Assembly (NCBI GenBank): GCA_963771175.1
Contig: CAVYSY010000032.1
Coordinates: 352,001 to 416,000, forward strand
DNA from: an uncultured delta proteobacterium
GTDB lineage: Bacteria; Myxococcota; Myxococcia; Myxococcales; Myxococcaceae
Direction of reading: 5' to 3'
DNA: 64,000 bases
This document shows positions 8,817 to 45,418 of the stretch, one piece after another. The number at the start of each line of letters is the position of its first letter. The first letter of the stretch is position 1. Below the pieces are notes generated by a model. That model was not told the origin of the DNA, did no database searches, and saw nothing but the letters and a program-made list of their open reading frames with translations. A program made the position numbers and the translations under genes.

Positions 8817-8851
8817 ACGGGACTCCGAGAGCGCGAGTTCGCGCGGTGCAG

Positions 8852-8867: not shown

Positions 8868-9128
8868 TCCAGGGCGCTGGCGAGGGCCCGCACGCCGAAC
8901 GGTCGGTTCGCGGCACCGAGCGGTCGCGAGGTGACTCCGCGTCCAGTACCCGATACCGACGTCCCGCCTCGGGCGTGTCCGGGTCGCCACGGCTGCGGCC
9001 GGTGAACCGCACACCCGCCCCGCGTGAAATCCGCGGCGCGATTCACTGCTCGTCTGTTCCGTCCCGACCCCGGACGCCCCGTTTCTCGGCATGACGCTCG
9101 AAGGCGGTTAGGCTGCGCCCTCTTCCCC

Positions 9129-26762: not shown

Positions 26763-26846
26763 CCAATCCCAGGTCGAGTCCCGAAGGAGTCGAGCCCCGT
26801 CGCGCCTCTCGTGAAGAGAGGGGCGGCGGGGCTTCTCCGTGCGTCC

Positions 26847-26993
26847 ATGGCGGAGGAGGAGCAGGTGCTGCTACACAAGCGCCACGCGCACTCCTCCGAC
26901 AAGAAGCTGATGGCCCTGGAAGGGAGCAACCTCTCCGACATCGCTCCGGACCAGGACCTCTCCCAGTGGCTGGTGAGCTCTTTGCAGCCGTAG
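26847..26993 (+). pseudogene. Short ORF, possible gene remnant
   Basis: 48 codons with strong G/C third-position bias but no recognisable domain. Confidence 0.3.
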
Positions 26994-27008
26994 TAAAAAT
27001 TTTGCTAC
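26990..27008. promoter_or_regulatory. AT-rich near-palindrome upstream of the multiheme cytochrome operon
   Basis: GTAGTAAAA-A-TTTTGCTAC (8/9 inverted match) in an unusually AT-rich patch. Confidence 0.45.
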
Positions 27009-27087
27009 ATTCTCTTATTACCACACGCCTTAAACTACGATGCACAATCCTCATCCCTCTCACAGTCCGCCTGGTGGTGTAGTGCCG

Positions 27088-29007
27088 ATGATTCGATCCC
27101 CCCTGGTTCGTGGCGCACTCTGTGCACTCCTGCTGTCAACGTTGGGCTGTAACCTGCTGAAGACCTCCGACTCGGAGAACGTGCCAGGCCGCGGCGCCCG
27201 CGCTTTCGACCCGTACCGGTCGTCCAACTCGGGTGCCATCCGCCTGTCTCTGCAGTGGTACAACGGCTGTGCCGTGATGCCGACGGGCCAGGCGGTGCCG
27301 AAGAACTCCGCACCCATCCCCTACCCCGACACGTGCCCCAGCCCCGTGGCCATTGACGGCTTCCCGCCGTATGTGCCGCCGGGGCAGATGCAGCTGGTGA
27401 CCGGCACCGACTACTTCCTCAACCAGATCACGGTGACGGACGCCCTCGTCAACGCCCACACCGACTTCGGGAAGCCGACGGAGCCGCTGCTCTGGATCAC
27501 GAAGCAGTCACGCTTCAAGAGTCTGGACTGGAGCGGCGCGGGCCTGGCTCAGGATGAGTGGATCTTCCAGTCCGGGGTTCCCGGAGTCTCCCAGGACCGG
27601 TGGCACCGCGTGGTCCTCTTCGACAATGGCGCCTGGCGGCGCGTCAAGGGCGACACCTTCAAGGTGGAGGTCCTGGACTCGGAGGGCACGGTGCGCGGCA
27701 CGCCGGTCGAGTACTCCCGCCAGGAGTTCCTCGCGGAGTCGCCGTACGCCGGGCACTCGCACTTCGGCTGGCGCATCGAGAACCTCAATCCTCCGCGCTA
27801 TCCTGGGGACCCGGAGGCTCACCCCCTGTCGGAGATTCCGGGCTGGCCTCCGCAGGCGCCGGTGTACCGGACCACCGCGCGGTTGGATCTCGTCGGCAGC
27901 ACCAACCCCTTCAAGACCTTCCGCGTCCCCGATTTGAAGGGAGAGGGTGCCGTGCGGGTGACCTGGAGCCAGATGCCCAACGAGCCGTTCTACTTCCCGG
28001 TGACGTTCGTGTCCGAGAAGGAGCTGCCGCCCACCTGCTTTGATGCGGCCGGCAACGCCAATACCCCGTGCGGCTTCGGTATCGATCCCAACCTCAACTT
28101 CGTCGCGCCGCAGAACGGCAAGTTCTACCAGCCAGGCGAGACGCTGAACGCCTTCGTCGACGTGCGTGACGGAAACGGCGTCCGGTTGCACGCGCCGGAC
28201 CTGATGCCCAGCGGAGTCGAGGTGACGTCCAACCAGGCCAACGGCATGCTCTATCCGAACCTGCCCTGGATCGATCGCACGCTGGAGCTGGACATGCTCC
28301 CCGTCGTCAACATCGCTGGGCCGCTCCACAAGATGTACAGCCGCAGCAACCCGAAGGAAGCCTCCCCCTACTACACGCTGGGGTACTCCTACGCGCTGCC
28401 CAGCGAGACGTCGACCACGCCGCTGAACCCCGCCGAGTTCGGCCAGAAGTGGGCCACGCGCTTCGGGACGCAGCTGCCGGCCAACGCCGAGCCCGGTACG
28501 TACGTGGCGCTCATCAAGTTCCACCGCTACTTCGGCGGTGAGCGCGTGGCCAAGACCAAGCCCTACTTCTTCCAGGTTGGCACGGAGCAGCGGACCACCT
28601 ACCCGGGCCGGGTCGGCAACTGCCAGATCTGCCACCGCGGCGTGCTCTCGCTGGACAACCTGCGCCACGGCTTGTCGGTGGACCACGTGGAGGCCTGCAG
28701 GACGTGCCACCAGTACGAGACCACCAACGGCGGCAGCGTGATGGAGAACATCCACAAGATCCACATGCGCTCGCCCAAGTTCCCGGAGGCCAAGAACGAC
28801 TGCACCATGTGCCACCTCACGCGCGAGAGCGCCACGCGCCCGAGCCTCTACGCGTGCGGCACGTGTCACCCCTCGGCGCACGGGACGGAGTTCTTCGCGT
28901 CCAAGTTCGTCACCGGGACCGAGCCGAGCCGTTATGGCAACTGCGCCCAGCAGTGCCATGGTGAGGCGGACTCGTTGCCCAAGCTCCACATCCTCCCTGC
29001 CCAATGA
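27088..29007 (+). CDS. Pentaheme c-type cytochrome lipoprotein, MtrC/OmcA-like heme module
   Basis: Lipobox TLGC; CQICH, CRTCH, CTMCH, CGTCH, CAQQCH; IHKIH and FP..KNDCxxCH spacing typical of MtrC/OmcA heme domains. Confidence 0.82.
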   Translation: MIRSPLVRGALCALLLSTLGCNLLKTSDSENVPGRGARAFDPYRSSNSGAIRLSLQWYNGCAVMPTGQAVPKNSAPIPYPDTCPSPVAIDGFPPYVPPGQMQLVTGTDYFLNQITVTDALVNAHTDFGKPTEPLLWITKQSRFKSLDWSGAGLAQDEWIFQSGVPGVSQDRWHRVVLFDNGAWRRVKGDTFKVEVLDSEGTVRGTPVEYSRQEFLAESPYAGHSHFGWRIENLNPPRYPGDPEAHPLSEIPGWPPQAPVYRTTARLDLVGSTNPFKTFRVPDLKGEGAVRVTWSQMPNEPFYFPVTFVSEKELPPTCFDAAGNANTPCGFGIDPNLNFVAPQNGKFYQPGETLNAFVDVRDGNGVRLHAPDLMPSGVEVTSNQANGMLYPNLPWIDRTLELDMLPVVNIAGPLHKMYSRSNPKEASPYYTLGYSYALPSETSTTPLNPAEFGQKWATRFGTQLPANAEPGTYVALIKFHRYFGGERVAKTKPYFFQVGTEQRTTYPGRVGNCQICHRGVLSLDNLRHGLSVDHVEACRTCHQYETTNGGSVMENIHKIHMRSPKFPEAKNDCTMCHLTRESATRPSLYACGTCHPSAHGTEFFASKFVTGTEPSRYGNCAQQCHGEADSLPKLHILPAQ

Positions 29008-30077
29008 GAGGCCCTTTCGTCATGACTCGTCATCTTCGATACGCAGCACTCATGGGCGCCTGTCTGCTGGGGATGGGCTGTGAGGAGACTCCCCCCCCGG
29101 GTCTGTCCGAGTTCGTCCCGGAAGCGCAGTACGTCGCCCCGGGCAGCTTCAGCCTGCACACCCGCATCTCCGGTCTGGCGTGGGACCCCGAGGCGTACTT
29201 CATGACCCTCGCCGCATGCGGGCCCACCTGCCCCATGCCGCCGTTCCTGTCCGAGGGCCTCCCGCTGTTCCAGCACGCGGCGGTGCAAAACGCCGCCATC
29301 TCCGCCTTTGATCCGCTCACCCAGACGACCACGGGTGACGCGACGACGACGGATGGGGTGGGCATCTGGGTCCTGCCTCAGGTCCCCAGCCGCGCCACCG
29401 CGCCGTACTTCATCCTCGCGGAGGCGCAGGGCTCCCTGCCCTCGGCGGTGGCCGGCCCGCCGCTGCCCAACGTGCCTTCCGCTCCGTACCTGCGGACCCT
29501 GACGCTGCGCCCCATCACCACCGTCGCCGGTATGTGCCTGTCCATGGAGGCCGTCCACATCAGCTCCCAGGGCATTCTGGAGGCGGTCGCCAAGTACCTG
29601 TCGTCCAAGGGCACGTCCACGCTCGTGTCGGACCTGGTGAACCCCACCCGGTATCACTCCGTGACCGTCCTGGGCCTCTTCCACGGGGGCAACGGCGCGA
29701 ATCGAGCCCCCGCGGATCAGATCGCCGTCGAGTCCTCCGTGGGGCAGGTGTACCACATCAACTGGGCGCCTCCCGGGAGCGATTCGGACCCGCTGCGCTC
29801 CTCGCGTGGCTTCATCGTCACGGAGTCCCAGAAGACGCCGGTGGGCTTCGCCGTGGTGCTGGTCCCCGCGACGTTGCCTCGTCCGGAGAAGATCACCTAC
29901 ACGGTGAAGGACACGAAGGAGGATGACGTGGCGCGCCGGCCTTGGTTCTACCCGCCCATCTCCGCGCCGCCCCAGTCGGGAGTCATCACCTTCATTGGTG
30001 CGCAGATGGGCTACCAGCCGCCGTCCATTCCGATCTTCCAGCTGCCACCGCCGCCCACCGCCTGCGTTCCCATGTAG
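29004..30077 (+). CDS. Hypothetical Pro-rich lipoprotein (start may be 29022)
   Basis: ATGA overlap with cytochrome stop; lipobox GMGC. Confidence 0.75.
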   Translation: MRGPFVMTRHLRYAALMGACLLGMGCEETPPPGLSEFVPEAQYVAPGSFSLHTRISGLAWDPEAYFMTLAACGPTCPMPPFLSEGLPLFQHAAVQNAAISAFDPLTQTTTGDATTTDGVGIWVLPQVPSRATAPYFILAEAQGSLPSAVAGPPLPNVPSAPYLRTLTLRPITTVAGMCLSMEAVHISSQGILEAVAKYLSSKGTSTLVSDLVNPTRYHSVTVLGLFHGGNGANRAPADQIAVESSVGQVYHINWAPPGSDSDPLRSSRGFIVTESQKTPVGFAVVLVPATLPRPEKITYTVKDTKEDDVARRPWFYPPISAPPQSGVITFIGAQMGYQPPSIPIFQLPPPPTACVPM

Positions 30078-30126: not shown

Positions 30127-31287
30127 ATGGCTCACGACTTCGACCAGCTCCTCGACCGCGGAAACAGCGACAGCCTCAAGTGGCGCAAGTACGGGGCGGA
30201 CGTCCTGCCCATGTGGGTCGCGGACATGGACTTCCGCTCCCCGGAGCCGGTGATCCACGCCCTGCGCGAGCGCATCGAGCAGGGGGTCTTTGGCTATCCC
30301 CACGAGCCCCAGCCCGGGCTCGTGGAGAGCGTCACCGCATATCTCCTGGAGCACCATGGCTGGCGGGTGTCGCCCGAGGCCATCGTGCTCCTCCCCGGGC
30401 TCATCCCGGGCTTCAATGTCGCCTGCCGGGCCGTCACGCAGCCCGGGGATGGAGTCCTGGTCCAGGTGCCGGCGTATCCGCCCCTGCTCCAGTGCCCGAA
30501 GAACGCCGGGCTCAGCCTGGACGCGGTGCGCCTGGTGCGGGGCTCCAGCGGCGCATACGAGCTCGACTGGGACTCCTTCCAGGGAGCGCTCCACCCACGC
30601 TCGCGCGTGCTGCTCCTGTGCAATCCCCACAATCCCCTGGGGCGCGTCTTCCGGCGGGAGGAGCTCACCCGCATGGCCGAGACCTGCCTGCGGAACGATC
30701 TGATCATCGTCTCCGATGAGATCCACTGCGATCTGGTGTTCGGTGGCCACACGCACACCTGCATCGCCACGCTCGGCCCGGAGGTGGAGGCGCGCACCAT
30801 CACCCTCATGTCTCCGAGCAAGACCTTCAACATCGCCGGACTCAAGATGGCGTTCGCGGTCATCCCGAACGCCGCGCTCCGGGAACGGTTCCTCGCGGCG
30901 CGCGTGGACATGCTGCCGTCCCCCAACATCCTCGGAGGGGTGGCGATGCAGGCCGCCTACCGGGAGGGCCAGCCGTGGCTCCGCGAGCTACGGGAGTACC
31001 TGGAGGCCAACCGCGACTTCCTCGTGGACTTCGTGCGCCGGTACTTCCCCGGTGTCCGCATGGTGGCGCCCGAGGGGACGTACCTGGCCTGGCTGGACTG
31101 CCGCGAAGCGGAGCTTCCGGGGAACGCCACCGCCTTCTTCCTCGAGCACGCGCGTGTGGCGCTCAGCCCCGGGGAGAGCTTTGGCCCGGGCGGAGAGGGC
31201 TGCGTCCGGCTCAACTTCGGCTGCCCGCGGGCGCTGCTGAGCGAGGGGCTGGAGCGAATGCGCCAGGCGCTGGAGCGGCGGCGCTGA
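30127..31287 (+). CDS. PatB/MalY-family PLP-dependent C-S lyase
   Basis: SLKW, LPMWVADMDF, LLCNPHNP, SDEIHCD, SPSKTFN (PLP Lys), EGTYLAWLD, VRLNFG. Confidence 0.93.
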   Translation: MAHDFDQLLDRGNSDSLKWRKYGADVLPMWVADMDFRSPEPVIHALRERIEQGVFGYPHEPQPGLVESVTAYLLEHHGWRVSPEAIVLLPGLIPGFNVACRAVTQPGDGVLVQVPAYPPLLQCPKNAGLSLDAVRLVRGSSGAYELDWDSFQGALHPRSRVLLLCNPHNPLGRVFRREELTRMAETCLRNDLIIVSDEIHCDLVFGGHTHTCIATLGPEVEARTITLMSPSKTFNIAGLKMAFAVIPNAALRERFLAARVDMLPSPNILGGVAMQAAYREGQPWLRELREYLEANRDFLVDFVRRYFPGVRMVAPEGTYLAWLDCREAELPGNATAFFLEHARVALSPGESFGPGGEGCVRLNFGCPRALLSEGLERMRQALERRR

Positions 31288-31295
31288 GCGGGACG

Positions 31296-31321
31296 CCGGG
31301 CGCCTCCCAAGAGGCGCCCGG
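31296..31321. terminator. Hairpin between convergent C-S lyase and methyltransferase genes
   Basis: CCGGGCGCCTC-CCAA-GAGGCGCCCGG followed by ACCGTTTT. Confidence 0.6.
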
Positions 31322-31330
31322 ACCGTTTTC

Positions 31331-31997
31331 TCAGGAGCCTGTCCCGGGCGTGAGCAGCCAGGCGCTCTCGGACGTCGAGAATGCGGTTGGTCGGAGGACC
31401 GACCACTTCCTCGCCACGGCCGACCAGCTCGAGGTGGAACCTGTCCCCCCACTTCTGCTGGACCTCCTCGGGAGGAATCGAGAAGGGAGGGCCAGGGAAG
31501 GTGCTGCTCTCGTAGGCCACGCTGAGCAGCAGCCCGCTGGTGCTGGGGGCCAGCAGTTCGCGCTTCATGTGCTGGACATAGCGCTCGCGCATCGCCGGGG
31601 GCAGGGCGATCAATGAGGCCCGATCGTAGAAGGCGGCCAGGGGCCCGGTCTGAGCGGTGCTCAGCTCGAAGAAATCGCCCTCATAGAGGGTGATGGGCTG
31701 GTCCTTGGCGCGGTGGACCCGGAAGCGGCCTTCGGTGACCGGCTCGGCGGCGGCGAGGCGGTTCTCGGAGAAGAAGGCCTTACAGGCGATCCCGCTGAGC
31801 TCGACGCCCACCACTTTGTAGCCCTGAGCCGCCAGCCACAGCATGTCCACGGACTTGCCACACAGGGGCACGAAGACCGTCGCCCCTCGAGCGACCCCCA
31901 GCCGCCCGAAGTTCGCGCTGAGGAACGTCTCGACCTCGGGCTGGTGGAAGCTGGTCTGCCCCATCTGCCAACGCTCGTGCCAGAACTGACTCTCCAT
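31331..31997 (-). CDS. Thiopurine S-methyltransferase (TPMT) family; one-base indel near 31382
   Basis: FWHERW, VFVPLCGKSVDM, GVELS, GDFF, YDRASLIALP, GPPF; removing one base gives ...RFSTSESAWLLTPGTGS* ending at 31331. Confidence 0.9.
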
Positions 31998-32034
31998 GCC
32001 GTGCTGTCTCCCGTGGTGCCGCACCTCGCGCCCT

Positions 32035-33222
32035 TCAGCGGATGAGGTTGCGTTGAGTCTCGTCGCGGTGCTTCTTGAGGTAGTGCGTGAAGGGCGTGCC
32101 GCCCGTGCCCTGCTCACCCTGCGAGGAGCCCTGCTCGCGGGCTGGCTGGATGATATAGCGGGCCGTCATTTCCATGTGCTTCTGCCGGAAGATGCCCAGC
32201 AGCTCGAGGCAGGTGTTGTAGGCCTCCACGAGCTCGGGTGAGCGGTGCGACAGGATGTACTCCCGGAGCGAGGGCCCTTGCTCCATGGCCTCGAGGAAGG
32301 CCAGGTGCGCGGGAGGAATGTAGCGGCGCAGCTCCAGCAGGTACCGGTGCAGCGTGTCCTCCGAGGAGTGCCGCACTCCCAGCACCGCGTCGAGCAGCGG
32401 CAGGATCATGCTCTGCGCCGCGCTCGCCCCCGCGAACGGCTGCGGCTGGCCCCCGAGCTCCTCCACTCCCTCGTACACCACCGGCATCTCGAGGAAGCCG
32501 TGGAGGAAGGGCTGGATGCGGCTGAAGAAGATGGACGGCTCGCAGCGCTCCGTCATCCGCAGCATCACGCGCTCCGTCTCCCGCTGGGCCTCGGCGATGA
32601 GCAGCAGTTGCGACAGGAGCAGCTCGGGCGTGTCCGCCACCACCGCTTCCCGCGCGGCCGCCGCGGCCGAGATGATGGGCTCGGCCTGGGCTTCGATGTT
32701 CACGTGCACGAGGATGAACCAGGACTCGTCCAGTCCCCCCAGGAACGTCTGAAGCACCATCAGGTTCCCCAGCGCGATGGGGCCCTGGGGATCAATCCGC
32801 CGCCAGTTGTTCAGCGCGTGCGAGCTGTACGCGAGCACCGGCGGACGCCCCAGCCGCTTCGCCACCTGCATCCAGGGCACCGCCACGCTGCGCGGGAAGC
32901 TCAGCTGCGGCTGCTGCCGCCCCTTCTCCCATACCGCCGCATGCCCGAAGAAGGACAGCAGCATCATGGCCCGCTCCAGGTGCCGAGGCTCCTCCAGCAG
33001 TCGGGGTTCCAGCAGTGGCAGCCGCGCGATGTGCTCGCGAGCCCTCCCGGCGGCCAGCAGGCCCGGCAGCTCACTGCCCAGCTCGTCCCAGGGCGCGAAG
33101 GCCTCGGGTAGCCGGAGGCAGGGATCCTCCTCGGGCAGAAAGCCTCGCCTGGGAAAGGGCAGGCTCTGGAGGGAGAGCCCCTCCGCACCCGGTCCACACG
33201 CCATCTTCGTGCGTTGCTCCAC
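32035..33222 (-). CDS. Indoleamine 2,3-dioxygenase / PrnB-like heme enzyme
   Basis: RGFLP, LGRPPVLAY..NW, DESWFILVH, GASAAQS, FRQKH (proximal His), GTGGT loop. Confidence 0.9.
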   Translation of the reverse strand: MEQRTKMACGPGAEGLSLQSLPFPRRGFLPEEDPCLRLPEAFAPWDELGSELPGLLAAGRAREHIARLPLLEPRLLEEPRHLERAMMLLSFFGHAAVWEKGRQQPQLSFPRSVAVPWMQVAKRLGRPPVLAYSSHALNNWRRIDPQGPIALGNLMVLQTFLGGLDESWFILVHVNIEAQAEPIISAAAAAREAVVADTPELLLSQLLLIAEAQRETERVMLRMTERCEPSIFFSRIQPFLHGFLEMPVVYEGVEELGGQPQPFAGASAAQSMILPLLDAVLGVRHSSEDTLHRYLLELRRYIPPAHLAFLEAMEQGPSLREYILSHRSPELVEAYNTCLELLGIFRQKHMEMTARYIIQPAREQGSSQGEQGTGGTPFTHYLKKHRDETQRNLIR

Positions 33223-33279
33223 TTCGCGACCCCTTGGGTGCGCACCTGGGGCAGGCTGCCCCCGGCGCTCGGCTTGATT

Positions 33280-34123
33280 CTATTCGGGGCTGGGCCGCTG
33301 GAACTCGCTCAGCATCTCCTGGAGCATGCTCACGCACTCTGGGGTCAGCTGGGCCTGGTTGCGCGCGATGAAACCCTTCAGCTCCACGCACCCCTCCTGC
33401 TGGAACCGGCTCAGGTAGGACTGAACGAACTCCTTGCGATCATTGAGGAAGGCGATGTCCGGCCGCACCATGTTGCGAATCACCAGCAGCGAAGGAGAAG
33501 CGCGCAGCGGATGCCAGCTCGGGTTGCGAAGGCCCGTCTTCACGTTGGTGGGGAAGAACTCGCCCAGCATGAGCGCATGCTTCACGAAGGAGGGCTTGAG
33601 CCGCTCGTGGAGATTGCTGATGAACTCCGGCTCCAGAGACTGGCGGCAGCCCGGTGAAGATCACCACGATGGTCTTGAACTGCCCCTGGCTGAATTCAGT
33701 CGGCGCCATCTCCAGGAAGTGATTGCGCAACAGGTGGAACGTCCGCTCCACCTCGTCCAGGCGCAGGTGCGCCTCATGTTGCAGCGTCAGGTGATACAGC
33801 CGGCGCTGGATGGACTTCTCCACCCAGGGGCACACCGAGCCCGTGCGCCCCAGATCCGGGTGAGGCCGGGTCAGGAAGTCGCGAGACCACTGCGCCACGA
33901 CCCTCAGGTACTCCATCTCCGTCGCGGAGCATCCCTCGAGCAGCGCGCCCTCCTCCAGGTTCAGCACATCCAGTGCCTGATACAGCGTCGGTAGCGCTTG
34001 CTCCGCGGGCTCCGCCGGGCTTTCCCGTAGAAGCCTGAGTTGCTCCGCGCCGTTTCGCACCGAATCGGAAACAGGCTGCCGAGTCGTGCTGTCGCTGGGA
34101 CATGGCAAAGGTAGAGGCTGCAT
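33280..34123 (-). CDS. DUF6875-like protein; frameshift near 33640
   Basis: W.RDFLTRPHPDLGRTGSVCPWV in one frame; LHERLKPSFV..LMLGEFFP..GLRNP.WHPLRASP..VIRNMV..D in the other; GGAGG RBS before ATG 34123. Confidence 0.7.
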
Positions 34124-34207
34124 CAACGGCACCTCCCGCACGAAGCGTGATCAAGGTGGGTTCAGAGGGAACAGCTCTTTCTCTGACTCCAAGAGTAGGG
34201 GAAGAAC

Positions 34208-34223
34208 ATTGTTACATAACAAT
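34208..34223. promoter_or_regulatory. Perfect palindrome in AT-rich promoter region of the DUF6875-IDO-TPMT unit
   Basis: ATTGTTA-CA-TAACAAT within the AT-rich 34170-34260 stretch. Confidence 0.6.
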
Positions 34224-34330
34224 ACGAGAAAAAATAGGTTTGGTGAAAAACTCCTCCGAAGGCGCAACTCCGCCCTTCTGAGACATTCTTGTCCCAGCGG
34301 CTCACGGCGGAGCAGAGCGGGGCCGCGCGC

Positions 34331-34984
34331 CTAACGCAGCTCGTCGAGCCAGGCGCGGAAGAGGGCCTTGCCCCCAGCGACGGCGGCGCGCACCTCGCGC
34401 TGCGGCCAGCTTTCGACGGTGGCGCCCAGCCCGCGACCGGCGCCGTAGGCGACCAGTTCGGGCATCTCCGGGTGGAACTGCACCGTCCAGCGATGTCTGG
34501 GATAGCGGAGCGCTTGGAGTCCCGCCGCGTCCTCCGCCCAGACGGTGGCCCCGGCGGGCACACCCACCACATGCTCGGAGTGCATGTGCATGACCCAACC
34601 CGTGAAGTCCGGGAGTCCCGGCAGCTGGAGCGGGTGTACCCCGACCTGGGGATGGGACATCTTCACCACGCGGGAGCCCAGCACACGGGCCAGGAGCTGA
34701 TGGCCACCGCAGATGCCCAGCAGCGGCACGTCCTGCCAGGTGCCCATCCACTCGCCCAGCCGCAGCCGCCACGGCTCGGTGTCGTTGGCCGAGCCCGCGC
34801 TGCCGCCCACCACCACGCCGGCGTAGCTCCTCGGGTCGGGCAGCGGCTCGCAGGTGGCATCCACCACGTGCACCTCATGACCCAGCTCCGCGAACAGCGG
34901 TGGGACCTGCAGCCGCTCGTCCGGCAGCGCGGAGCGGCGCGGGTGATCATGAGACATGATCTGCGACAGGTAGAGGACTCGCAC
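34331..34984 (-). CDS. Stand-alone class I glutamine amidotransferase-like hydrolase
   Basis: GVVVGGS, LGICGGHQ (Cys nucleophile), VQFHPE (His-Glu). Confidence 0.88.
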   Translation of the reverse strand: MRVLYLSQIMSHDHPRRSALPDERLQVPPLFAELGHEVHVVDATCEPLPDPRSYAGVVVGGSAGSANDTEPWRLRLGEWMGTWQDVPLLGICGGHQLLARVLGSRVVKMSHPQVGVHPLQLPGLPDFTGWVMHMHSEHVVGVPAGATVWAEDAAGLQALRYPRHRWTVQFHPEMPELVAYGAGRGLGATVESWPQREVRAAVAGGKALFRAWLDELR

Positions 34985-35010
34985 GCCCGCTCGAGTGTAG
35001 CGGCGTCGTC

Positions 35011-36267
35011 CTAGCCGGACAAGACCGCCCCGGGCCACGGCGCCTCCGTGGGCGAGGCCAGATGGGGCATCACCTCCTCGGCGAAGTAGCGCATCTGCGA
35101 GACGACGTCCTCATGGTCCTTGGCGAACTCGAACCAGAGCATGAGGCGATCCTCCGGGTGGAAGCCCCGGGGATCTCCGGATGAGAGCTGCTCGCGCACC
35201 CTCGCCGCATCCCCCACCAGCACACGCGCCATGAGATCCTCCTTGCGGGGAATGTTCACCGTGCCACGCATGCCCTCGATGTAGACGTCCAGCCCGCGAG
35301 ACGCCATGGCCTCGGCCTTCTTGCAATCCTTGTCGATGAAGATGAGCGAGGTGCGAGGCATGCGGCTGCGGTGCCACAGGCGGCCCCCGGCGAGGCTGCG
35401 CTCTCGCATCTCGGCATGAACGGCGTCCAGCACGGCCGGTGGCGTGACAGAGAGGCTGAAGAGGTCCAGATCCGCGTGGCGCAGGCCGAGCTCCCGCGCG
35501 AGTGGATCCATCGAGCCCAGCACGAAGCGGCAGAACGCGGAGGCGTTGGCGGGCAGGGCCGGGACGAGCCGGAGAGGCTCGAAGACCCAGCGCGGCTGGT
35601 AGCGCAGGCGCTCCGGCGAGGAGCCTGCTCGCGGCGGCAGCTGCTTCACCTCGGCCTGGAAGCGGCTCCAGGCGGCCTCGGTGGGGAAGCACTCCCGGGT
35701 GAAGGCATGAGGCGTCACGTCCTCCGAGCCGAGCACCTCCCCATTGCTCAACCGCAGGAAGATCTCCAGGGCCTCCAGGAAGATGAAGCGTTTGTAGTGC
35801 TCCCAGAGCAGCTCCTCCTCGCGATCCCGGGGGACGATGCCAAAGGGCTTGTTGATGTAGGGGAAGCGCCCGCTGGCGACACCGATGTGCAGCTTGCGAG
35901 GCGTCTCCCGGAGACTGTTGAGGAAGGCGAGGGCGCGGATGCGGTCCGCGGCGGCAATGGGCCCCCCGTTGCCGCCGACGATGTTGTAGATGGCCGTCCC
36001 GAAGCCGATGCGCCGGGTGCGCTCGAACACCTGTTGGGCCAGCTGGGGGCTGTCGTTGTTCAGCCCCACCTCCCCCACGTAATAGGGGACGACCGGCTCC
36101 TTGTGACGCTTCTGGACCTCACTGGAGAAGTGGGATTCGGCCGTCCACCAGGTGCCGAACCCGAGCTCGTCGGCGACGACGGCCTGCGCGAAGAACTCCT
36201 GGAACGTCTGCCTCTCGGACTGCTCCCAGGAGAAGGTCCCCAGGGAATGGAACACGTCAAAGTACAT
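35011..36267 (-). CDS. Luciferase-like (LLM class) flavin-dependent monooxygenase
   Basis: ADELGFGTWWTAESHF, TRRIGFGTA, LVGDAARVREQL, MRYFAEEVMP; GGAGG RBS. Confidence 0.85.
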   Translation of the reverse strand: MYFDVFHSLGTFSWEQSERQTFQEFFAQAVVADELGFGTWWTAESHFSSEVQKRHKEPVVPYYVGEVGLNNDSPQLAQQVFERTRRIGFGTAIYNIVGGNGGPIAAADRIRALAFLNSLRETPRKLHIGVASGRFPYINKPFGIVPRDREEELLWEHYKRFIFLEALEIFLRLSNGEVLGSEDVTPHAFTRECFPTEAAWSRFQAEVKQLPPRAGSSPERLRYQPRWVFEPLRLVPALPANASAFCRFVLGSMDPLARELGLRHADLDLFSLSVTPPAVLDAVHAEMRERSLAGGRLWHRSRMPRTSLIFIDKDCKKAEAMASRGLDVYIEGMRGTVNIPRKEDLMARVLVGDAARVREQLSSGDPRGFHPEDRLMLWFEFAKDHEDVVSQMRYFAEEVMPHLASPTEAPWPGAVLSG

Positions 36268-36305
36268 GCGAACCTCCTGCCCGCGCGGCCATCGACACCG
36301 GGAGC

Positions 36306-37010
36306 TCACTCGATCACGGTGACGGGCAGTGCTGTCTCCCGGACTCCCACCTCGGTTCGCTCCACGCGCCAGGCCTGGGCCTTCTCTCGCGAGGAAATGG
36401 TGTGGGAGAGCTGGGTGCCGATGAAGTGGAACCCCACGCCATCATCGGCGGCGAGCCCTCCCGGCAGGCCCTCGGCGATGAAGCGGTGGTAGGCCGGCCG
36501 GCGCGCCGGCTCGGAGTCATAGTGGGGGCACAGCGTGCCCGGCAGCAGCCCCAGCCCATTGTGGAAGGAGGAGAGCGACCCCAGTGAGTCCGTGAGTCCA
36601 CCCTCGAACCAGCACATGGCTCCGGCGCTCATCCCGCACAGCAGCACGCCCTGCTCCCAGGCCTCCTTGAGCACCGCGTCCAGCCCGTGCAGCCGCCAGA
36701 GCGCGAGCATGTTGAGCGTATTGCCCGGACCGACGAAGACGGCATCCTGCCGGAGGATGAGCTCGCGCAGCTCCTCCTTGCCCCGGCTGAAGAGCGACAG
36801 GTGCGTGGGCTGGCAGCGGCTGGCCGGGTAGGCCTGGTAGAAGCGGACGATGAAGTCGGCCGCATCCCCGCTCGCCGTGGGGATGAAGCACACGCGCCTC
36901 CGGGTGTTCTCCAGGAGCCCCAGCAGGTAGTTGTCCAGGCGCGGGTTGCCCGGCTCCATCAGGAAGCCGCCCCCGCTCAGGGCCACGATCTGTCGTGCCT
37001 CCATTGCCAT
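36306..37010 (-). CDS. Peptidase E (S51) family
   Basis: FIPTASGD, GxGNT, GMSAGA (Ser nucleophile), CPHY (His). Confidence 0.9.
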   Translation of the reverse strand: MAMEARQIVALSGGGFLMEPGNPRLDNYLLGLLENTRRRVCFIPTASGDAADFIVRFYQAYPASRCQPTHLSLFSRGKEELRELILRQDAVFVGPGNTLNMLALWRLHGLDAVLKEAWEQGVLLCGMSAGAMCWFEGGLTDSLGSLSSFHNGLGLLPGTLCPHYDSEPARRPAYHRFIAEGLPGGLAADDGVGFHFIGTQLSHTISSREKAQAWRVERTEVGVRETALPVTVIE

Positions 37011-37127
37011 GTCCTCTCCTTCCGGCCCCACTATAGCAGCGAGCCGCGGCGACTCCTGGGCCCTGGACAGCCCTGGCGGGGAAGGGCAACCTCCGCGCTC
37101 CTTCCACCCCCCACGAGGACATCAAGC

Positions 37128-37745
37128 ATGAAGGTCTACAACAATCCCTTCTCGGGTTCCGGATTCAAGATCACCGCCGTCATCCACGAGCTGGGTCTGA
37201 GCAACGTGGAGGTCATCACCGTTGACCTGGCCAAGGGCCAGCACCAGGAGCCCTGGTTCCGGGCCATCAACCCCAACGCCAAGGTCCCCGCGCTGGTGGA
37301 CGGGGATTTCGTCCTCTGGGAGTCCAACGCGATCATCACCTACCTGGGCGCGCTGGTGCCGGAGCGCGGGCTGATGCCGACCGACGCGCGCGGCATGGCC
37401 GAGGTGCAGAAGTGGCTGCACTGGCAGTCCTTCGCCTTCTACAACGACACCTTCAAGGTCATCTGGAACACCTACTACCAGAAGCTCTTTGGCCACCCGA
37501 AGGACGAGAAGGTGCTCGCCGAGGGCCGGGAGCTGGTGGAGCGTGATCTCAAGGTGCTCGAGGAGTCACTGAAGGACCGCGAGTACCTGACGGGCAAGCT
37601 CTCCGTCGCCGACTTCGCGATCGCCTCGAACCTGCTGGTGCGCGACATGGCGGGCATCGACCTCAAGCCCTTCCCCCACGTGAAGGCCTGGGTCGAGCGC
37701 ATGGAGGCCCGCCCGAGCATGCAGAAGGCCCGGCCGCCGGTGTAG
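37128..37745 (+). CDS. Glutathione S-transferase family protein
   Basis: INPNAKVPALVD, LWESNAIITYL, LSVADFA, FPHVKAWVERM..RPS. Confidence 0.93.
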   Translation: MKVYNNPFSGSGFKITAVIHELGLSNVEVITVDLAKGQHQEPWFRAINPNAKVPALVDGDFVLWESNAIITYLGALVPERGLMPTDARGMAEVQKWLHWQSFAFYNDTFKVIWNTYYQKLFGHPKDEKVLAEGRELVERDLKVLEESLKDREYLTGKLSVADFAIASNLLVRDMAGIDLKPFPHVKAWVERMEARPSMQKARPPV

Positions 37746-37766
37746 GCGCCTCAGTCCAGGCTCCAA

Positions 37767-37788
37767 GCCCCCTGCTTCGGCAGGGGGC
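37767..37788. terminator. Hairpin between convergent GST and gshA
   Basis: GCCCCCTGC-TTCG-GCAGGGGGC (UUCG loop). Confidence 0.6.
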
Positions 37789-37838
37789 CATTCAGCACAC
37801 AGGGCTCATCCCTTGGAGCCGACTGTGCGGACACTCCA

Positions 37839-39176
37839 TCAAAGCGCGAAACGCGCGAGCAGCGCCTCGGGGCGGGGATCCTTCTCCCACGCCTCCAGCA
37901 CAGCCTGAGCGGGCGAGCGGCCAGATGCGGCCACCTCGGCGAGCGGATCCACCAGGGGGGCATCCTCCCGATCCAGTCGCTCCAGACCCCGGCGCGCGAT
38001 GGCCACCATCTCCCCGGCCAGCCGGTGGATTTCATGGTTGCCGAGCTTGCCGGCCAGCCCCTGCCGACGAGCGGTGTCGTGGAAGGCCTGGTGCTCCTCG
38101 AAGGACAGGCGGGGCAGGAGCCGCTCGGCCTCCTCCATGGCCCCCCGATCGTACAGCAGCCCGCGCCACAGCGCCGCGAGCGCGCCCGTCATCGGCGCCG
38201 ACACGCAATCCGCGCCGCGCACCTCGAGGACCTTCTTCAGTCGCACCTCGGGGAAGAGCGTGGAGAGATGATCCGTCCAGTCGCTCATGTCGGCGGGGCT
38301 GCCCTCGAAGCCCTGCTGGATGAACTGGCGGAAGGTCATCTTCGGGCGGAGGTACTCCTCGCCCCGGCGCAGGAAGAGGATGGGGGCGTCCAGGGCCCAA
38401 TCCACGTAGGCGCGGTAGGAGAAGGAGCCATCGAAGAAGGAGCGCAGGTAGCCGCAGCGCGTGGGGTCCACCTCATCCCAGACGCGGTTGCGGAAGGACA
38501 GGTAGCCCGAGGGCTTGCCATCGACGAGCGGGCTGTTGGCGTAGAGGGCGTTCATGAGCGGCGATAGCCGCGCCACCAGCACCGTCTTGCGCACACAGTC
38601 GGCCTCGTCCTCCCAGTCGAGGGAGACCTGACCGGTGGCGGTCATCAACATCATGTTGAGCGCCAGCCGGCCACGCTCGGGGAGGCTCTGGCGCATGGCC
38701 AGGTAGCGCGTCTTGGGCATCCACGGCATGTCCGCGGGCGTCACGAAGGGCCGGTAGCCCAGGGCCACCAGTCGCAGCCCGAGCGGCTCGGCGGCGGCCT
38801 TCACCTCGGCCAGGTGGGCCAGGTTCTCCGCGTGGGCCTCGCGCGCGGTGCGGAAGGGCGAGCCCGAGAGTTCCAACTGCCCGCCCGGCTCCAGGGAGAT
38901 GGTGAGCATGCCCTTCTGCAGGGCGATGACGGGCGACTGCGGCGTCTCCCGGAAGGGCGTGTAGCCGGCGGGGGCGATGCGCTCCAGCAGCGCGCCAATC
39001 CCCGAGGGCCCCTCGTAGGGCACGGGACGCGCGACCTGGACGGGGTACACGAACTTCTCGTGCTCGAGCCCGAGCCGGTGTTGGGACCGGGGCTTCTCGG
39101 CGGACCGGAAACCGGCCAACAGCATGTCGAGGGAGGTGATGGGCTCGGAGGCGTCGCGTTGGAGATCGAGGGACAT
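37839..39176 (-). CDS. gshA: Glutamate--cysteine ligase (plant/alphaproteobacterial type)
   Basis: LGLEHEKF, SLEPGGQLELSG, WMPKTRY, QVSLD, ANSP, HLSTLFPEVRLK..LEVRGAD. Confidence 0.93.
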   Translation of the reverse strand: MSLDLQRDASEPITSLDMLLAGFRSAEKPRSQHRLGLEHEKFVYPVQVARPVPYEGPSGIGALLERIAPAGYTPFRETPQSPVIALQKGMLTISLEPGGQLELSGSPFRTAREAHAENLAHLAEVKAAAEPLGLRLVALGYRPFVTPADMPWMPKTRYLAMRQSLPERGRLALNMMLMTATGQVSLDWEDEADCVRKTVLVARLSPLMNALYANSPLVDGKPSGYLSFRNRVWDEVDPTRCGYLRSFFDGSFSYRAYVDWALDAPILFLRRGEEYLRPKMTFRQFIQQGFEGSPADMSDWTDHLSTLFPEVRLKKVLEVRGADCVSAPMTGALAALWRGLLYDRGAMEEAERLLPRLSFEEHQAFHDTARRQGLAGKLGNHEIHRLAGEMVAIARRGLERLDREDAPLVDPLAEVAASGRSPAQAVLEAWEKDPRPEALLARFAL

Positions 39177-39236
39177 GTCGGGCCCCTTTATAACCGCCAT
39201 TGACCCCGTCGCCGTCATTTGCGCATCGTCCCGAGG

Positions 39237-40046
39237 ATGACCCACCCCTCGCCGGTGCCCACCTTCTCCGCCCGGTCCGGTCCGTCGGACTTCTTTCAAG
39301 GGCTCGCCCTGCTGGGCAGGGCCTGGGGCCTCATCTTCCGCTCGCCTCGGCTGCTGGGCATGTCCGCCCTCTGTGCGGTCGTCACCCTGGTGGCCCTGGG
39401 AGGCCTCTTCGCCCTCCTCTGGACGTACACGCCGCAGCTCCTGGGGTGGCTGTGGACCCTCCCCGAGGCCTGGTATGGCCGCATCCTCTGGTACATCGTC
39501 CTGGCGCTGATGTTCCTCGTGCTGCTGGTGGTGGGGGCCAACGTCACCCTGCCCCTGGTGCTGGCCCCGCTGCAGGATCCCCTGTCGGAGATCACCGAGG
39601 AGCTGTGCGGGGACTTCTCGCCGCCCCCCTTCCGGCTCGGCCCCTTCCTCCGGAGCCTGGTCACCAGCGTGGCGCACACCCTGGCGCGCGTCTTCTTCCT
39701 GCTGTTGGGACTGGCCGTGCTCTTCCCACTCAACCTGGTGCCGGTGGCGGGCAACGTACTCTGGACGGTGCTGGGGACCGTGTGGACGATGCTCTGGTTG
39801 GCTGGCGAGCATCTGGCCGCGCCCATGACACGCCACGGGTATCCCTTCGCCGAGGTCCGTCGGGTGCTGGGTCAGCGCTGGCTGCTCTGCCTGGGCTTCG
39901 GGGTGGGCGTCTACGTCCTGCTCTGGATTCCCATCCTCAACACCTTCTTCCTCCCGGTGGCCGTGGTTGGCGGCACGCTCCTCTACCGGGGGCTGCGTGC
40001 CGTGGGGAACGTTCCTCCCCCTCCCTCCCTGGCCCTCGGGAAATAA
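39237..40046 (+). CDS. EI24/CysZ-like membrane protein
   Basis: Multiple TMs; APLQDPLSE and IPILNTFFLPVAVVGGT motifs. Confidence 0.8.
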   Translation: MTHPSPVPTFSARSGPSDFFQGLALLGRAWGLIFRSPRLLGMSALCAVVTLVALGGLFALLWTYTPQLLGWLWTLPEAWYGRILWYIVLALMFLVLLVVGANVTLPLVLAPLQDPLSEITEELCGDFSPPPFRLGPFLRSLVTSVAHTLARVFFLLLGLAVLFPLNLVPVAGNVLWTVLGTVWTMLWLAGEHLAAPMTRHGYPFAEVRRVLGQRWLLCLGFGVGVYVLLWIPILNTFFLPVAVVGGTLLYRGLRAVGNVPPPPSLALGK

Positions 40047-40270: not shown

Positions 40271-43200
40271 ATGCCGCGACTTTTTCGCCGGATCACCGCC
40301 GTCGCCGTCCTCCTTGGCGCCTGGGCCCTCGTCGGGAATGACCGGGCGCCGCTCCCCCTGACGCTCGGCGCGGCGGAGGCCGGCCAGGGCAGCTCGGACT
40401 CCACCCGTATCGCCGGCGAGAAGGGGCAGCACGACCTCTCCTCCCTGCGCGTCTTCACGAAGGTCATCCTCTACGTGAAGGACAACTACGTCGACCCCAA
40501 GCGCGTGAAGCCCAAGGAGATGATGATCTCCGCGCTGGAGTACGTGGAGAAGAGCGTCCCGGACGTGCTCGTGGACGGCAGCGCCGAGACGGGCAAGCTC
40601 CACGTCAACGTCAACGGCCAGAAGCGCGACTTCGACATCAGCCACGTCGACTCGCTGTGGAAGATGTCCTTCACGCTCAAGGACGTCTTCGACTTCGTGA
40701 ACAAGAACATGCGTCCCCTGGACGACACCCGCGACGTCGAGTACGCGGCCGTCAACGGGATGCTCTCCACGTTGGATCCGCACTCGGTGCTGCTGCGCCC
40801 GGAGATCTACCGGGAGATGAAGCTGTCCACCAAGGGTGAGTTCGGCGGCCTGGGCTTCGTCATCCAGATGCGCGAGGGCAACCTCACCGTGGTCAAGGTG
40901 CTGCCCAAGACGCCGGCCTACCGCGCGGGCATCCAGAAGGACGATCAGATCAAGCGCATTGGCGAGGAGTCCACCGTCAACATGGACCTCAACGAGGCCG
41001 TGTCGAAGCTGCGTGGCGCCGTGGACAGCCGCGTCTCCATCACCGTGGAGCGCAAGGGCTGGGACAAGCCGCACAACATGACGCTCAGCCGCGCGATGAT
41101 CTCCATCGAGAGCGTGCAGTCCAAGCTGCTCGCGGGGAACGTGGGCTACGTGCGCCTGAAGAACTTCCAGGGCAACACCACGAGGGACCTCCAGGCGGCC
41201 CTCTCCGAGATGCGCCGTCAGACCGAGAGCCAAGGGCGGGCTCAAGGGCGTGGTGCTGGACCTGCGCGGCAACCCGGGCGGCCTGCTCGAGCAGGCCATC
41301 CAGGTGTCGGACACCTTCGTCTCCAGCGGCACCATCGTCTCGACGGTGGGCCTGTCGGACAAGCTGCGCGAGGAGAAGCGCGCCCGTCCGGACGAGGGCG
41401 AGGACGCCTACCCCATCGCCGTGCTGGTGAACGCGGGCAGCGCCTCGGCCTCGGAGATCGTCGCCGGCGCGCTCAAGAACCTCAACCGCGCCGTCATCAT
41501 CGGCCGCCAGACGTTCGGCAAGGGCAGCGTGCAGGTGCTGTACGACTTCCCGGACGACAGCGCCCTCAAGCTGACCATCGCCAAGTACCTCACCCCGGGC
41601 GACGTCTCCATCCAGGAGGTCGGCATCGTCCCGGACATCGAGCTGGTGCCCGCGGCCGTCACCGACGAGCGCGTGCACGTGTTCGCCCCGCGCAAGACGA
41701 TCGGCGAGGCGGACCTGGATCAGCACTTCGGCAACCCCAACTCGGACTCCGTGGCCAAGAAGCGCGAGGACGTGCTCGGCCGCGAGAAGCCGCTGGAGTC
41801 GCTCAAGTACCTCAAGCTGGACGAGAAGCAGCAGCAGGCGGCCCAGGCCAAGAAGGACGAGGCCGCCAAGGGTCCCGAGGTGGCCAGCAAGGCGGAGAAG
41901 AGCCCGCTGCTGGACGTGGAGTCGGTGGGCTCCGGCGAGGAGCTGGACGACCAGATGGACGCCGAGAGCCAGGACGAGGTGAAGGAGGACTTCGAGGTGC
42001 AGTTCGCCCGCGACTTCGTCCTCCAGGTGCCCCTCACCGAGCGGCGCGCCATGCTGCAGAAGGGCAAGGCCTTCGTGGAGCAGAAGCGCCGCGAGGAGGA
42101 GCAGCGCATCAACGCCGCCATCAGCGCGCTCGACGTGGACTGGAGCGCGGGCCCCACGCCCAAGGACGTGAAGCTCGCCGCCACCTTCACCCCCAGCGCC
42201 GACCAGCGCATCACCGCGGGCGAGACGTTCGACCTGGCCGTCACCGCCGAGAACAAGGGCACCGAGGCCCTCAAGCGCGTGCGCGCCTGGACGGAGAGCG
42301 ACAACTACTACCTCGACCGCCGCGAGTTCCTCTTCGGCAGCCTCGCTCCGGGTGAGAAGAAGACGTGGAAGGTGAAGGTCAAGCTGCCCAAGGACCTGAC
42401 CTCCCGCCGCGACGAGGTGACGGTGAAGTTCCACGACGACAACGGGGCCCTGCCCACCACGGTCGTCAGCGAGCTGAGCTTCGCCGAGCTGCCGCGTCCC
42501 GCCTTCGCCTTCAACTGGCAGGTCGTCGACAACTGCGAGGCCTGCAACGGCGACGGCGTCGCGCAGCGCGGCGAGGACCTCACCCTGGTGCTGGACGTGA
42601 CGAACACCGGCACGGGCAAGGCGCTCGACTCGTTCGCGCAGATCAAGAATGTCGGCGACCCGAACATCTTCATCGAGAAGGGCCGCTTCAAGCTGGGCGA
42701 GATGGCCCCGGGCGAGACGAAGACGGCGCGCTTCCAGCTCGAGGTGAAGAAGGGCTTCCGCGAGGAGAGCTTCCCGCTGAAGCTGGCCATCGTCGACGAG
42801 CCGCTCGAGGAGTTCGCCATGGAGAAGCTGCAGCTCCCGGTGACGGACGCCCCGGTGGCGAAGTTCGAGCCGAAGAAGGGCCTGGTGAAGCTCTCGGAGA
42901 AGGCCGAGCTGCTGGCCTCGCCGCAGCAGGACGGCGTGGTGCTGGCGAAGCTCTCCCGTCCGGTGCTGCTCAACACCGAGGCCTCGGCCAAGGGCTTCTA
43001 CCGGGTGGAGCTGGACAAGGACCGGTTCGCCTTCGTGCGCGCCCAGGATGCCCGCGACGCTCGCGGCAAGCCCTCGCCCGCCAAGGACATCTCCTTCGTG
43101 GCCCGCCGCTCGCCGCCGGACATCAAGCTCGACGTGGACGCCAGCCAGGGTGGCCTGGTGGCCAATGGCGACAAGTTCACCCTCTCCGGAGAGGTGAGCG

Positions 43201-45309: not shown

Positions 45310-45418
45310 GCTCCCAGTGTGCGACAGGCCGGCCCGGCGGGCGAGCGTCCCGAGCGGGGCCGTCCGGGGGGTGACAGGCGGCTTGCCTCACCCGGGGCTT
45401 TGCTGCACTGTGCGCCGC

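Follow-up and report, generated by a model that had tools for sequence, protein, structure and literature searches.

A cytochrome P422 and indoleamine 2,3-dioxygenase locus with a possible role in sulfur-bearing tryptophan metabolism in a Hyalangium-like myxobacterium

In the fungal gliotoxin pathway and in the plant glucosinolate and camalexin pathways, sulfur chemistry runs through a glutathione S-transferase (GST), gamma-glutamyl removal, a dipeptidase, a pyridoxal phosphate (PLP)-dependent C-S lyase, and an optional S-methylation. Among bacteria, the S-methylation step of lincomycin biosynthesis is that of LmbG. In that pathway, a mycothiol conjugate is processed by an amidase and by the PLP enzyme LmbF, which yields a thiol by beta-elimination (PMC5518657, PMC11794154). 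For tropodithietic acid and the roseobacticides, PatB is described as the enzyme that makes S-thiocysteine, along with a GST-like protein (TdaB) and a flavin mononucleotide (FMN) enzyme (TdaF) (PMC7497051). Here, we describe a locus at positions 30127–39176 of a 64,000-nucleotide (nt) stretch of DNA (hereafter, the window; contig CAVYSY010000032.1 of assembly GCA_963771175.1, an uncultured member of the Myxococcaceae) in which genes for a DUF6875 protein (cytochrome P422), an indoleamine 2,3-dioxygenase (IDO), and a TPMT-family S-methyltransferase are flanked by genes for a PatB-family lyase, a GST, and a glutamate-cysteine ligase.

Proteins of the DUF6875 family were renamed cytochrome P422, a group of thiolate-ligated heme enzymes, in a December 2025 preprint (bioRxiv 10.64898/2025.12.11.692455). 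According to that preprint, P422 members hydroxylate free L-tryptophan at N1, C6, or C7, and C7-hydroxylation followed by the action of a dioxygenase gives 3-hydroxykynurenine without a kynurenine monooxygenase. P422 is also described there as forming a C-S bond in thienodolin biosynthesis, and N1-hydroxylating members as supporting C-S bond formation by thio-Michael addition. P422 genes are frequently located beside those for tryptophan 2,3-dioxygenase (TDO) and kynureninase, and the enzymes tested include two from Myxococcota. A 2026 JACS article likewise gives a role in C7-hydroxylation to a DUF6875 protein (PMC13307353).

All eight enzyme families, together with the glutamate-cysteine ligase, that the initial annotation had named for this region are present according to Pfam and NCBIfam. 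From the gene content, gene order, and motifs, which were observed directly, we infer each chemical step proposed below. Our favored reading, held tentatively and with confidence short of even, is that a Hyalangium-like myxobacterium carries here a lineage-restricted locus for small-molecule metabolism, which may oxidize free tryptophan and S-methylate a thiol on the product. Coding frames were chosen by third-position GC and checked with Pfam and NCBIfam; raw lists of open reading frames (ORFs) were crowded because of the high G+C content of the window (65–76%), with 108 ORFs of at least 80 amino acids (aa) within 22–46 kb. The features of the locus are as follows.

30127–31287, plus strand: PatB-family PLP-dependent C-S beta-lyase of 386 aa, transcribed as a separate unit and convergent with the TPMT gene
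31296–31321, between the convergent PatB and TPMT genes: GC-rich hairpin, a putative terminator, 11 pairs of which 10 are G-C, with a T-run on the plus strand
31331–31997, minus strand: TPMT-family S-methyltransferase of about 222 aa, allowing for a one-base frameshift between 31369 and 31392
32035–33204, minus strand: IDO, 389 aa, full length
33280–34123, minus strand: DUF6875/cytochrome P422 of 280 aa, discounting one extra base at about 33644–33651
34124–34330, minus strand: AT-rich spacer of 207 nt with a perfect palindrome, leader of the P422-IDO-TPMT unit, marked by a drop in GC
34331–34957, minus strand: stand-alone class-I glutamine-amidotransferase-like (GATase) hydrolase, 208 aa
35011–36267, minus strand: divergent luciferase-like (LLM) flavin monooxygenase, 418 aa
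36306–37010, minus strand: Peptidase S51 family hydrolase of 234 aa, encoded by the gene that opens the S51-LLM-GATase unit
37128–37745, plus strand: GST, 205 aa, divergent from the S51 gene across 117 nt
37839–39176, minus strand: GCS2-family glutamate-cysteine ligase (GshA), 445 aa, convergent with the GST gene
39219–40046, plus strand: CysZ-type sulfate transporter, a neighbor just outside the locus, divergent from the GCS2 gene

These genes had been described in the initial annotation as contiguous and with intact motifs. The families stand, but both strands are used and the genes fall into at least five transcription units (PatB, plus; P422-IDO-TPMT, minus; S51-LLM-GATase, minus; GST, plus; GCS2, minus), and the TPMT and DUF6875 genes are frameshifted. 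The units are bounded by the strong hairpin at 31296–31321, the 207-nt AT-rich spacer, and gaps of 117 and 93 nt, and the PatB gene is isolated between two hairpins. P422, IDO, and TPMT are encoded on the same strand with gaps of 75 nt (P422-IDO) and 37 nt (IDO-TPMT), TPMT lying downstream of IDO. Directly upstream is the S51-LLM-GATase unit, also on a single strand, with gaps of 38 nt (S51-LLM) and 53 nt (LLM-GATase), while PatB, GST, GshA, and CysZ flank these two units. Shine-Dalgarno-like GGAGG sequences precede P422, LLM, and S51; together with the tight spacing, they suggest co-transcription within P422-IDO-TPMT and within S51-LLM-GATase.

The spacer upstream of P422 carries the palindrome ATTGTTA-TG-TAACAAT (7+2+7; 34208–34223), which occurs once in the window where 0.01 copies are expected by chance. 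The spacer is the probable promoter/operator of the P422-IDO-TPMT unit, with the palindrome as a candidate operator. No regulator gene adjoins the palindrome. An operator shared by several units was considered and rejected, the palindrome being single in the window. An Rfam scan of 29–41 kb returned zero matches, and a sigma-70 promoter scan returned 0 sites, a result that says little in a myxobacterium.

The description of DUF6875 as a family of heme tryptophan hydroxylases provides independent support for the tryptophan scaffold suggested in the initial annotation. The DUF6875 gene matches PF21780 with 78.4 and 67.7 bits (cut-off 24.5) in two frames, covering profile positions 2–88 in ORF 33440–34141 and 108–170 (of 178) in ORF 33280–33585. 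Four P422 motifs are given in the preprint, namely RxGxVCP and three substrate-binding regions (SBR1, Rx(M/L)xxxDxxF; SBR2, Dxx(Q/H)xxxK; SBR3, MxGxF) (bioRxiv 10.64898/2025.12.11.692455), and all four can be located in the window gene, one of them only in part. The heme motif with its axial Cys is found in the N-terminal part (GRTGSVCPW), SBR1 reads RNMVRPDIAF, and SBR3 reads MLGEF. In SBR2, HERLK is kept and the Asp position is Ser (SNLHERLK), as it is in close homologs.

The neighboring gene encodes a true IDO. It matches PF01231 over profile positions 10–411 of 412 (E 3.8e-97, 326 bits), gives 234 bits with human IDO2 and about 196–200 bits with IDO1, and is 78% identical to a Hyalangium rubrum protein. 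The proximal heme His in FRQKHMEM aligns with that of IDO2 and is the same in all 41 homologs aligned. The label "IDO/PrnB-like" in the initial annotation is therefore retained in its IDO half, and PrnB-like identity is ruled out by the full-length PF01231 and IDO2 matches. Judging from the activities described in the preprint, P422, rather than LLM or IDO alone, is the likeliest activating oxidase.

On the sulfur side, the PatB gene product matches the class I/II aminotransferase family in Pfam (E 2.6e-42) and scores 452 bits against TIGR04350 in NCBIfam (cut-off 340), in agreement with the C-S lyase originally proposed. Its matches in the Protein Data Bank (PDB) include 5z0q (341 bits), PatB itself (6qp3, 306 bits), and a cysteine-S-conjugate beta-lyase (9k71, 294 bits); kynurenine aminotransferases are also matched (80–88 bits). 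The translation contains the SPSK motif. The product of 30127–31287 is accordingly a bona fide PatB-family C-S lyase.

Assignment of the methyltransferase to the TPMT family also stands (PF05724, E 5.4e-57), with the qualification that its tail is out of frame. Models from Pfam, NCBIfam, and the PDB are matched only up to profile position 187–196. The score against TIGR03840 (219.5 bits) falls just under the cut-off (223.2) with profile positions 188–213 unmatched because the tail is frameshifted, and correcting for the shift would probably alter this outcome. Query residues 18–193 align with the solved structure 1pjz (137.6 bits) through the S-adenosylmethionine-binding region, and the relatives of known structure that were recovered methylate S, thiols, or halides. 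The protein thus lies close to, but under, the cut-off of the bacterial thiopurine/Se/Te methyltransferase equivalog. Within the wider family, several representatives (P0250–P0253, P0264, P0273, and P0342) reach 450–700 aa and carry two or three TPMT-like stretches (tandem or fused domains).

The remaining enzymes are assigned with less specificity. The GATase matches PF00117 (E 3.5e-15), falls under the cut-off for Peptidase_C26 (PF07722; 16.9 bits, cut-off 20.5), and contains the Cys and His-x-Glu motifs (GICGGHQ and FHPE). The S51 protein matches PF03575 (E 6.6e-45, 153.7 bits) and scores 20–23 bits to solved S51 members in the PDB; its translation contains the GMSAGA motif. LLM matches PF00296 (E 6.7e-11) and luciferase profiles weakly, has no NCBIfam match and no PDB match by sequence, and in the Atlas matches only clusters labeled "LLM." Its AF2 model (pLDDT 89.7) gave RslO1 (7bip), an Enhygromyxa luciferase (8cbb), and SsuD/MsuD as top Foldseek matches at 12–19% identity, and SfnG is also among the fold matches. 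Because the modeled fold matches RslO1, luciferase, and SsuD/MsuD, LLM is predicted to be an FMN-type monooxygenase of a divergent subfamily, with no substrate clue from the fold. The GST has both GST_N and GST_C domains in Pfam and is closest to phi-class and Ure2p-type GSTs, the nearest solved structure being maize GST III (105 bits). GshA (PF04107, E 5.9e-58) scores 373 bits against TIGR01436 (cut-off 463) and 156 bits against the EgtA model, which suggests a plant/alphaproteobacterial-type GCS2 below the equivalog cut-off. CysZ matches PF07264 (E 7e-30) and scores 72 bits against NF003433 (cut-off 140).

In the pathway that we propose, P422 would hydroxylate the indole ring at N1, C6, or C7. 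IDO would then open the pyrrole ring to give (hydroxy)formylkynurenine, or LLM would oxidize the intermediate further, with an electrophile as the outcome either way (an N-hydroxyindole or an o-aminophenol/quinone-imine). A thiol would be added to this electrophile, possibly glutathione by way of the divergent GST, with gamma-Glu-Cys or cysteine/S-thiocysteine supplied by PatB as equally possible donors. The GATase-like cysteine hydrolase would take off gamma-glutamate and the S51 serine hydrolase would take off glycine, PatB would split the resulting cysteine conjugate to a free thiol, and TPMT would convert this to a methyl thioether. The strongest arguments for this scheme are the placement of a thiol-type methyltransferase gene 37 nt behind that of IDO and the presence of patB, gshA, tpm, GST, and cysZ around the operon. 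The genes gshA, patB, and tpm are normally single-copy, and we infer that the location of all three within 9 kb, with a GST gene nearby, is unlikely to be due to chance.

A bolder version, which we consider unlikely, is that the locus encodes a Gram-negative analog of the eukaryotic glutathione-conjugate route, built from bacterial families and using glutathione made by GshA. The product would then be a methylthio-indole, methylthio-kynurenine, or methylthio-quinone, possibly linked to the S-methyl quinone chemistry of Hyalangium, and the S51 serine peptidase would trim the conjugate, a new activity for its family.

Homologs in close relatives were compared for IDO, LLM, and DUF6875. The search with the IDO protein gave 1314 matches, 120 of which were listed, and among the matches listed for the three proteins the best named homologs are from Hyalangium rubrum and H. 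minutum, which makes the source of the window a Hyalangium-like myxobacterium. Homologs of IDO (76–78% identity) and LLM (82–90%) occur on a 174,966-bp contig of H. rubrum and on two others, of 23,619 bp and 9,860 bp, and DUF6875 homologs on the 174,966-bp and 23,619-bp contigs, that is, in two of the three relatives. A shared contig was taken from the equal lengths of the matched contigs, which is a proxy for linkage rather than proof. In H. minutum, LLM (60%) and DUF6875 (70%) homologs are on one 1.04-Mb contig, and no H. minutum IDO is among the 120 listed of the 1314 matches. Intact orthologs of TPMT and DUF6875 occur in relatives.

More distant IDO homologs are found in other surroundings. 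We applied Pfam to 60 immediate flanking ORFs, picked from 174 candidates in 30 of 35 full-length distant IDO loci, and the neighbors proved unrelated and variable, with no kynurenine genes and no families of the cluster among them. Two of these 30 loci encode a Cys/Met PLP enzyme upstream of IDO. A peptidase M50 gene comes after that of IDO in 4 loci and an aldehyde dehydrogenase gene comes before it in 3, and each of these M50 or dehydrogenase loci belongs to Acidobacteriota. Stand-alone IDO homologs (40–52% identity) without kynurenine-pathway genes occur in Chloroflexota, Acidobacteriota, Bdellovibrionota, Coxiellaceae, Binatia, and others.

Plasmid-borne homologs were also recovered. The sole plasmid match of LLM is on pCLA1 of Streptomyces clavuligerus (40% identity, unrelated neighbors). 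The DUF6875 search returned 64 records, with Rhizobium symbiosis plasmids at 34–35% identity among the 20 listed, and IDO is matched on 10 plasmids; the two regions inspected for plasmid-borne DUF6875 or IDO have no similar context. DUF6875 is present on 42 Rhizobium plasmids of the collection. On Rhizobium etli p42d (6869–11843 of the inspected region L082), the symbiosis-plasmid DUF6875 gene is beside YbaK/EbsC, and an LLM oxidoreductase gene and nodD2/nodD3 are about 3 kb away.

The frameshifts in the P422 and TPMT genes were located by comparison with homologs. In the DUF6875 gene, tblastn with the intact homologs P0241 and P0245 placed a single extra base at about 33644–33651 (minus strand, ...CTGCCGCCAGTCT...), which puts the heme-binding and substrate-binding halves in different frames. 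In the TPMT gene, the frame is lost between 31369 and 31392, as placed with P0249, the nearest TPMT cluster representative (63% identical, 220 aa). The end of P0249 reads ...ERAWLLTPLHGS... / ...LLERAWLLTPLHGSTLPY, and the window TPMT gives ESAWLLTPGTGS and then a stop, in the other frame; this out-of-frame stop (31331–31333) is just before the hairpin at 31296–31321. When the TPMT tail was compared with HMMs in two frames, no matches resulted, and it was the comparison with P0249 that resolved the frame instead. A 386-aa antisense ORF running into the PatB gene was rejected as a read-through artifact of the TPMT shift; PatB and the antisense frame have wobble positions in common.

Frameshifts also break a REC-GGDEF gene (about 4653–4672) and the gene of a PDZ/S41 CtpA-type protease (about 41212–41232), giving four verified frameshifts in 64 kb, two of which are inside the 2.8-kb P422-IDO-TPMT unit and none of which is in a long homopolymer. 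Coding-signal segmentation suggests further breaks at about 45890, in a 1203-aa zinc-ribbon ORF, and at about 50407, in a ParA-like gene. The assembly probably has indel errors roughly every 8–15 kb. Because similar breaks affect unrelated genes of the window, we read those in P422 and TPMT as probable assembly indels.

Several observations weigh against the proposed pathway. A scan of genomes with an IDO alignment gave 585 confirmed matches, with 80 loci listed from many phyla at 40–52% identity; none of the 80 carries any of the 11 other window proteins within 10 kb (tblastn, E ≤ 1e-5). Hyalangium-type loci are not among the 80, and the scan is informative only as a negative on deep conservation. 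The partner association is thus recent and narrow and is not an old property of bacterial IDOs. Co-conservation is confined to IDO, LLM, and DUF6875 in a narrow Hyalangium-like group, where synteny may reflect kinship only, and an IDO clade at 69–72% identity (P0009–P0016) shares no contig with the listed LLM and DUF6875 matches by the same equal-length proxy. Both TPMT and P422 are frameshifted in the assembled sequence. The palindrome of the P422 leader precedes no other unit, and PatB, GST, and GshA, as separate units bounded by hairpins and gaps, may be housekeeping genes. It is by family membership and adjacency alone that GST, GATase, S51, and PatB would be tied to the trimming of a conjugate. 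The GATase, proposed earlier as a GGP1 counterpart, belongs to the class-I family but is not specifically GGP1-like, scoring 36.4 bits to GMP synthase and 29.5 bits to GGP1 (9k7i). Similarly, "peptidase E" was correct for the S51 protein as to family but not as to PepE itself (NF003642, 30.1 bits, cut-off 156), and the protein is only a distant S51 member. We know of no S51 enzyme that cleaves Cys-Gly. Kynurenine formamidase, kynureninase, ferredoxin, and reductase are absent from the Pfam matches across the window, and the dioxygenase therefore does not sit in a canonical kynurenine operon, in which formamidase and kynureninase genes accompany it.

Part of this evidence is shared by a tryptophan pathway without sulfur, which is nearly equal in standing to the favored reading and is itself doubtful. 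Here, P422, for instance by C7-hydroxylation, and IDO would give 3-hydroxy-N-formylkynurenine, as in the route to 3-hydroxykynurenine described in the preprint (bioRxiv 10.64898/2025.12.11.692455), and the flanking sulfur genes would be bystanders. The canonical formamidase is missing from the window and two hydrolases are on offer to replace it, so that the GATase-like or S51 enzyme could deformylate; yet two peptidase-type hydrolases exceed what deformylation needs, and the window has no kynureninase. LLM would oxidize the product further, and the methyltransferase would cap a hydroxyl or other nucleophile, a role that fits poorly with a near-equivalog of the thiopurine/Se/Te S-methyltransferase whose solved relatives methylate thiols or halides. 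In a quinolobactin-like version, the PatB-type aminotransferase-fold enzyme would cyclize 3-hydroxykynurenine to a xanthurenate-type quinoline, consistent with its 80–88-bit matches to kynurenine aminotransferases. GST, GshA, and CysZ (and PatB, outside the quinolobactin-like version) would be sulfur housekeeping genes. Their location in separate units, the housekeeping character of the remaining window (alaS, ribF, dinG, ruvX, greA), and co-conservation for IDO, LLM, and DUF6875 only are in keeping with this, although the occurrence of gshA, patB, GST, and cysZ around the operon would then presumably be coincidence.

A locus that is real but decaying or silent is a rather improbable explanation. 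True frameshifts would have cut the P422 heme domain from its substrate-binding regions and left TPMT without its C-terminus, and the clustering of two of the four verified shifts within 2.8 kb, neither in a long homopolymer, could be so explained. The shifts in the REC-GGDEF and protease genes and the coding-signal breaks near 45.9 and 50.4 kb fit an assembly indel pattern instead; moreover, P422 and TPMT keep high GC3, motifs, and homolog-like sequence on either side of a single shift, and relatives have intact orthologs. Still less probable is a neighborhood for thiol-dependent detoxification or sulfur salvage, in which the GST would conjugate an electrophile (possibly an oxidized indole), the GATase-like and S51 enzymes would degrade glutathione or its conjugates, PatB and TPMT would finish a "thiomethyl shunt," LLM would act like the sulfonate monooxygenases, and CysZ and GshA would belong to the same sulfur economy. 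Sulfur-related families do occur on both flanks, and PatB matches cysteine-S-conjugate beta-lyases. The likeness of LLM to SsuD, MsuD, and SfnG is, however, at the level of fold (12–19% identity), with RslO1 and luciferase matching equally well or better. Neither a regulator of sulfur starvation nor a transporter for such substrates was identified, and the dedicated P422-IDO pair in one unit with TPMT would be left unexplained.

The rest of the window is ordinary chromosome, encoding alaS, ribF, trmB-like, dinG-like, ruvX, yceG, and greA genes, a thermolysin-type protease, and a multiheme cytochrome module. The absence of nonribosomal peptide synthetases (NRPS) and polyketide synthases (PKS) reported in the initial annotation was borne out, none being found among Pfam matches across the window. 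Just upstream of PatB (26130–30077) are genes for an outer-membrane beta-barrel, a 655-aa lipoprotein-like cytochrome with four CxxCH motifs and weak similarity to MtrC/OmcA, and a 357-aa protein without a family match, an arrangement that looks like a porin-cytochrome module in a myxobacterium. The 1203-aa ORF (45164–48775, minus strand) has an N-terminal zinc-ribbon domain, the rest being for the most part high in GC and of low complexity; the last 735 nt, at its 3' end, carry no coding signal and overlap a GDPD gene. The coding region at 49.5–52.1 kb is messy.

Bacterial IDO homologs are widespread (1314 protein matches; 585 confirmed genome matches), and are usually found on their own beside unrelated genes. 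The window places an IDO in a defined enzymatic context with a newly recognized tryptophan hydroxylase, and suggests, without showing, that bacteria have a new way of making a tryptophan metabolite that bears sulfur. If the sulfur reading is correct, glutathione-type sulfur insertion and S-methylation in Gram-negatives would be carried out by GATase-like, S51, PatB, and TPMT enzymes, S51 and stand-alone GATase-like proteins would have a new job, and the combination would be a genome-mining signature for methylthio aromatic metabolites made without NRPS or PKS. If the pathway is instead free of sulfur, the locus would still be a new P422/IDO variant of hydroxykynurenine chemistry.

The literature searched on DUF6875, cytochrome P422, IDO in myxobacteria, and TPMT with IDO and GST contained no description of such a cluster, consistent with the novelty claimed in the initial annotation for its composition. 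The logic of conjugating, trimming, cleaving, and methylating is, in contrast, not new to bacteria, since related logic, with other thiols, operates for lincomycin and tropodithietic acid. In lincomycin biosynthesis, trimming of a bacterial thiol conjugate likewise leaves a cysteine conjugate, which a PLP enzyme cleaves before S-methylation; the thiols there are mycothiol and ergothioneine, the host is an actinomycete, the scaffold is a sugar, and the enzymes are not orthologous to those of the window. Tropodithietic acid resembles the proposed pathway in that a Gram-negative PatB, a GST-fold enzyme, and a flavoenzyme put sulfur on an oxidized ring, and the roseobacticides bear thiomethyl groups. 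It differs in that the ring is a tropone derived from phenylacetate, the action of PatB precedes conjugation instead of following it, and neither gamma-glutamyl/dipeptide trimming nor tryptophan enzymes are involved. Hyaladione, described as an S-methyl quinone from Hyalangium minutum, is an S-methylated, oxidized six-membered ring from the genus of the closest relatives, and serves as a lead only.

Compared with the gliotoxin, glucosinolate, and camalexin pathways, a candidate is present here for every step, and plant GGP1, a class-I GATase-like peptidase, is among the PDB matches of the window GATase. Relative to gliotoxin and glucosinolate biosynthesis, S51 replaces an M19-type dipeptidase, the methyltransferase is of TPMT type, and the genes form at least five units. 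The pairing of P422 with a dioxygenase is already described, with TDO, in the preprint, as in the actinomycin AcmE/TDO-type modules (bioRxiv 10.64898/2025.12.11.692455). Set against those modules as described there, the window has IDO (PF01231) in place of TDO, is without NRPS, kynureninase, and formamidase, has TPMT, S51, LLM, and GATase as partners, and encodes a P422 whose SBR2 Asp is Ser and whose gene is frameshifted. What they have in common is a DUF6875 gene beside that of a heme tryptophan dioxygenase, a likeness that would imply a route from hydroxytryptophan to hydroxy-formylkynurenine in this locus as well.

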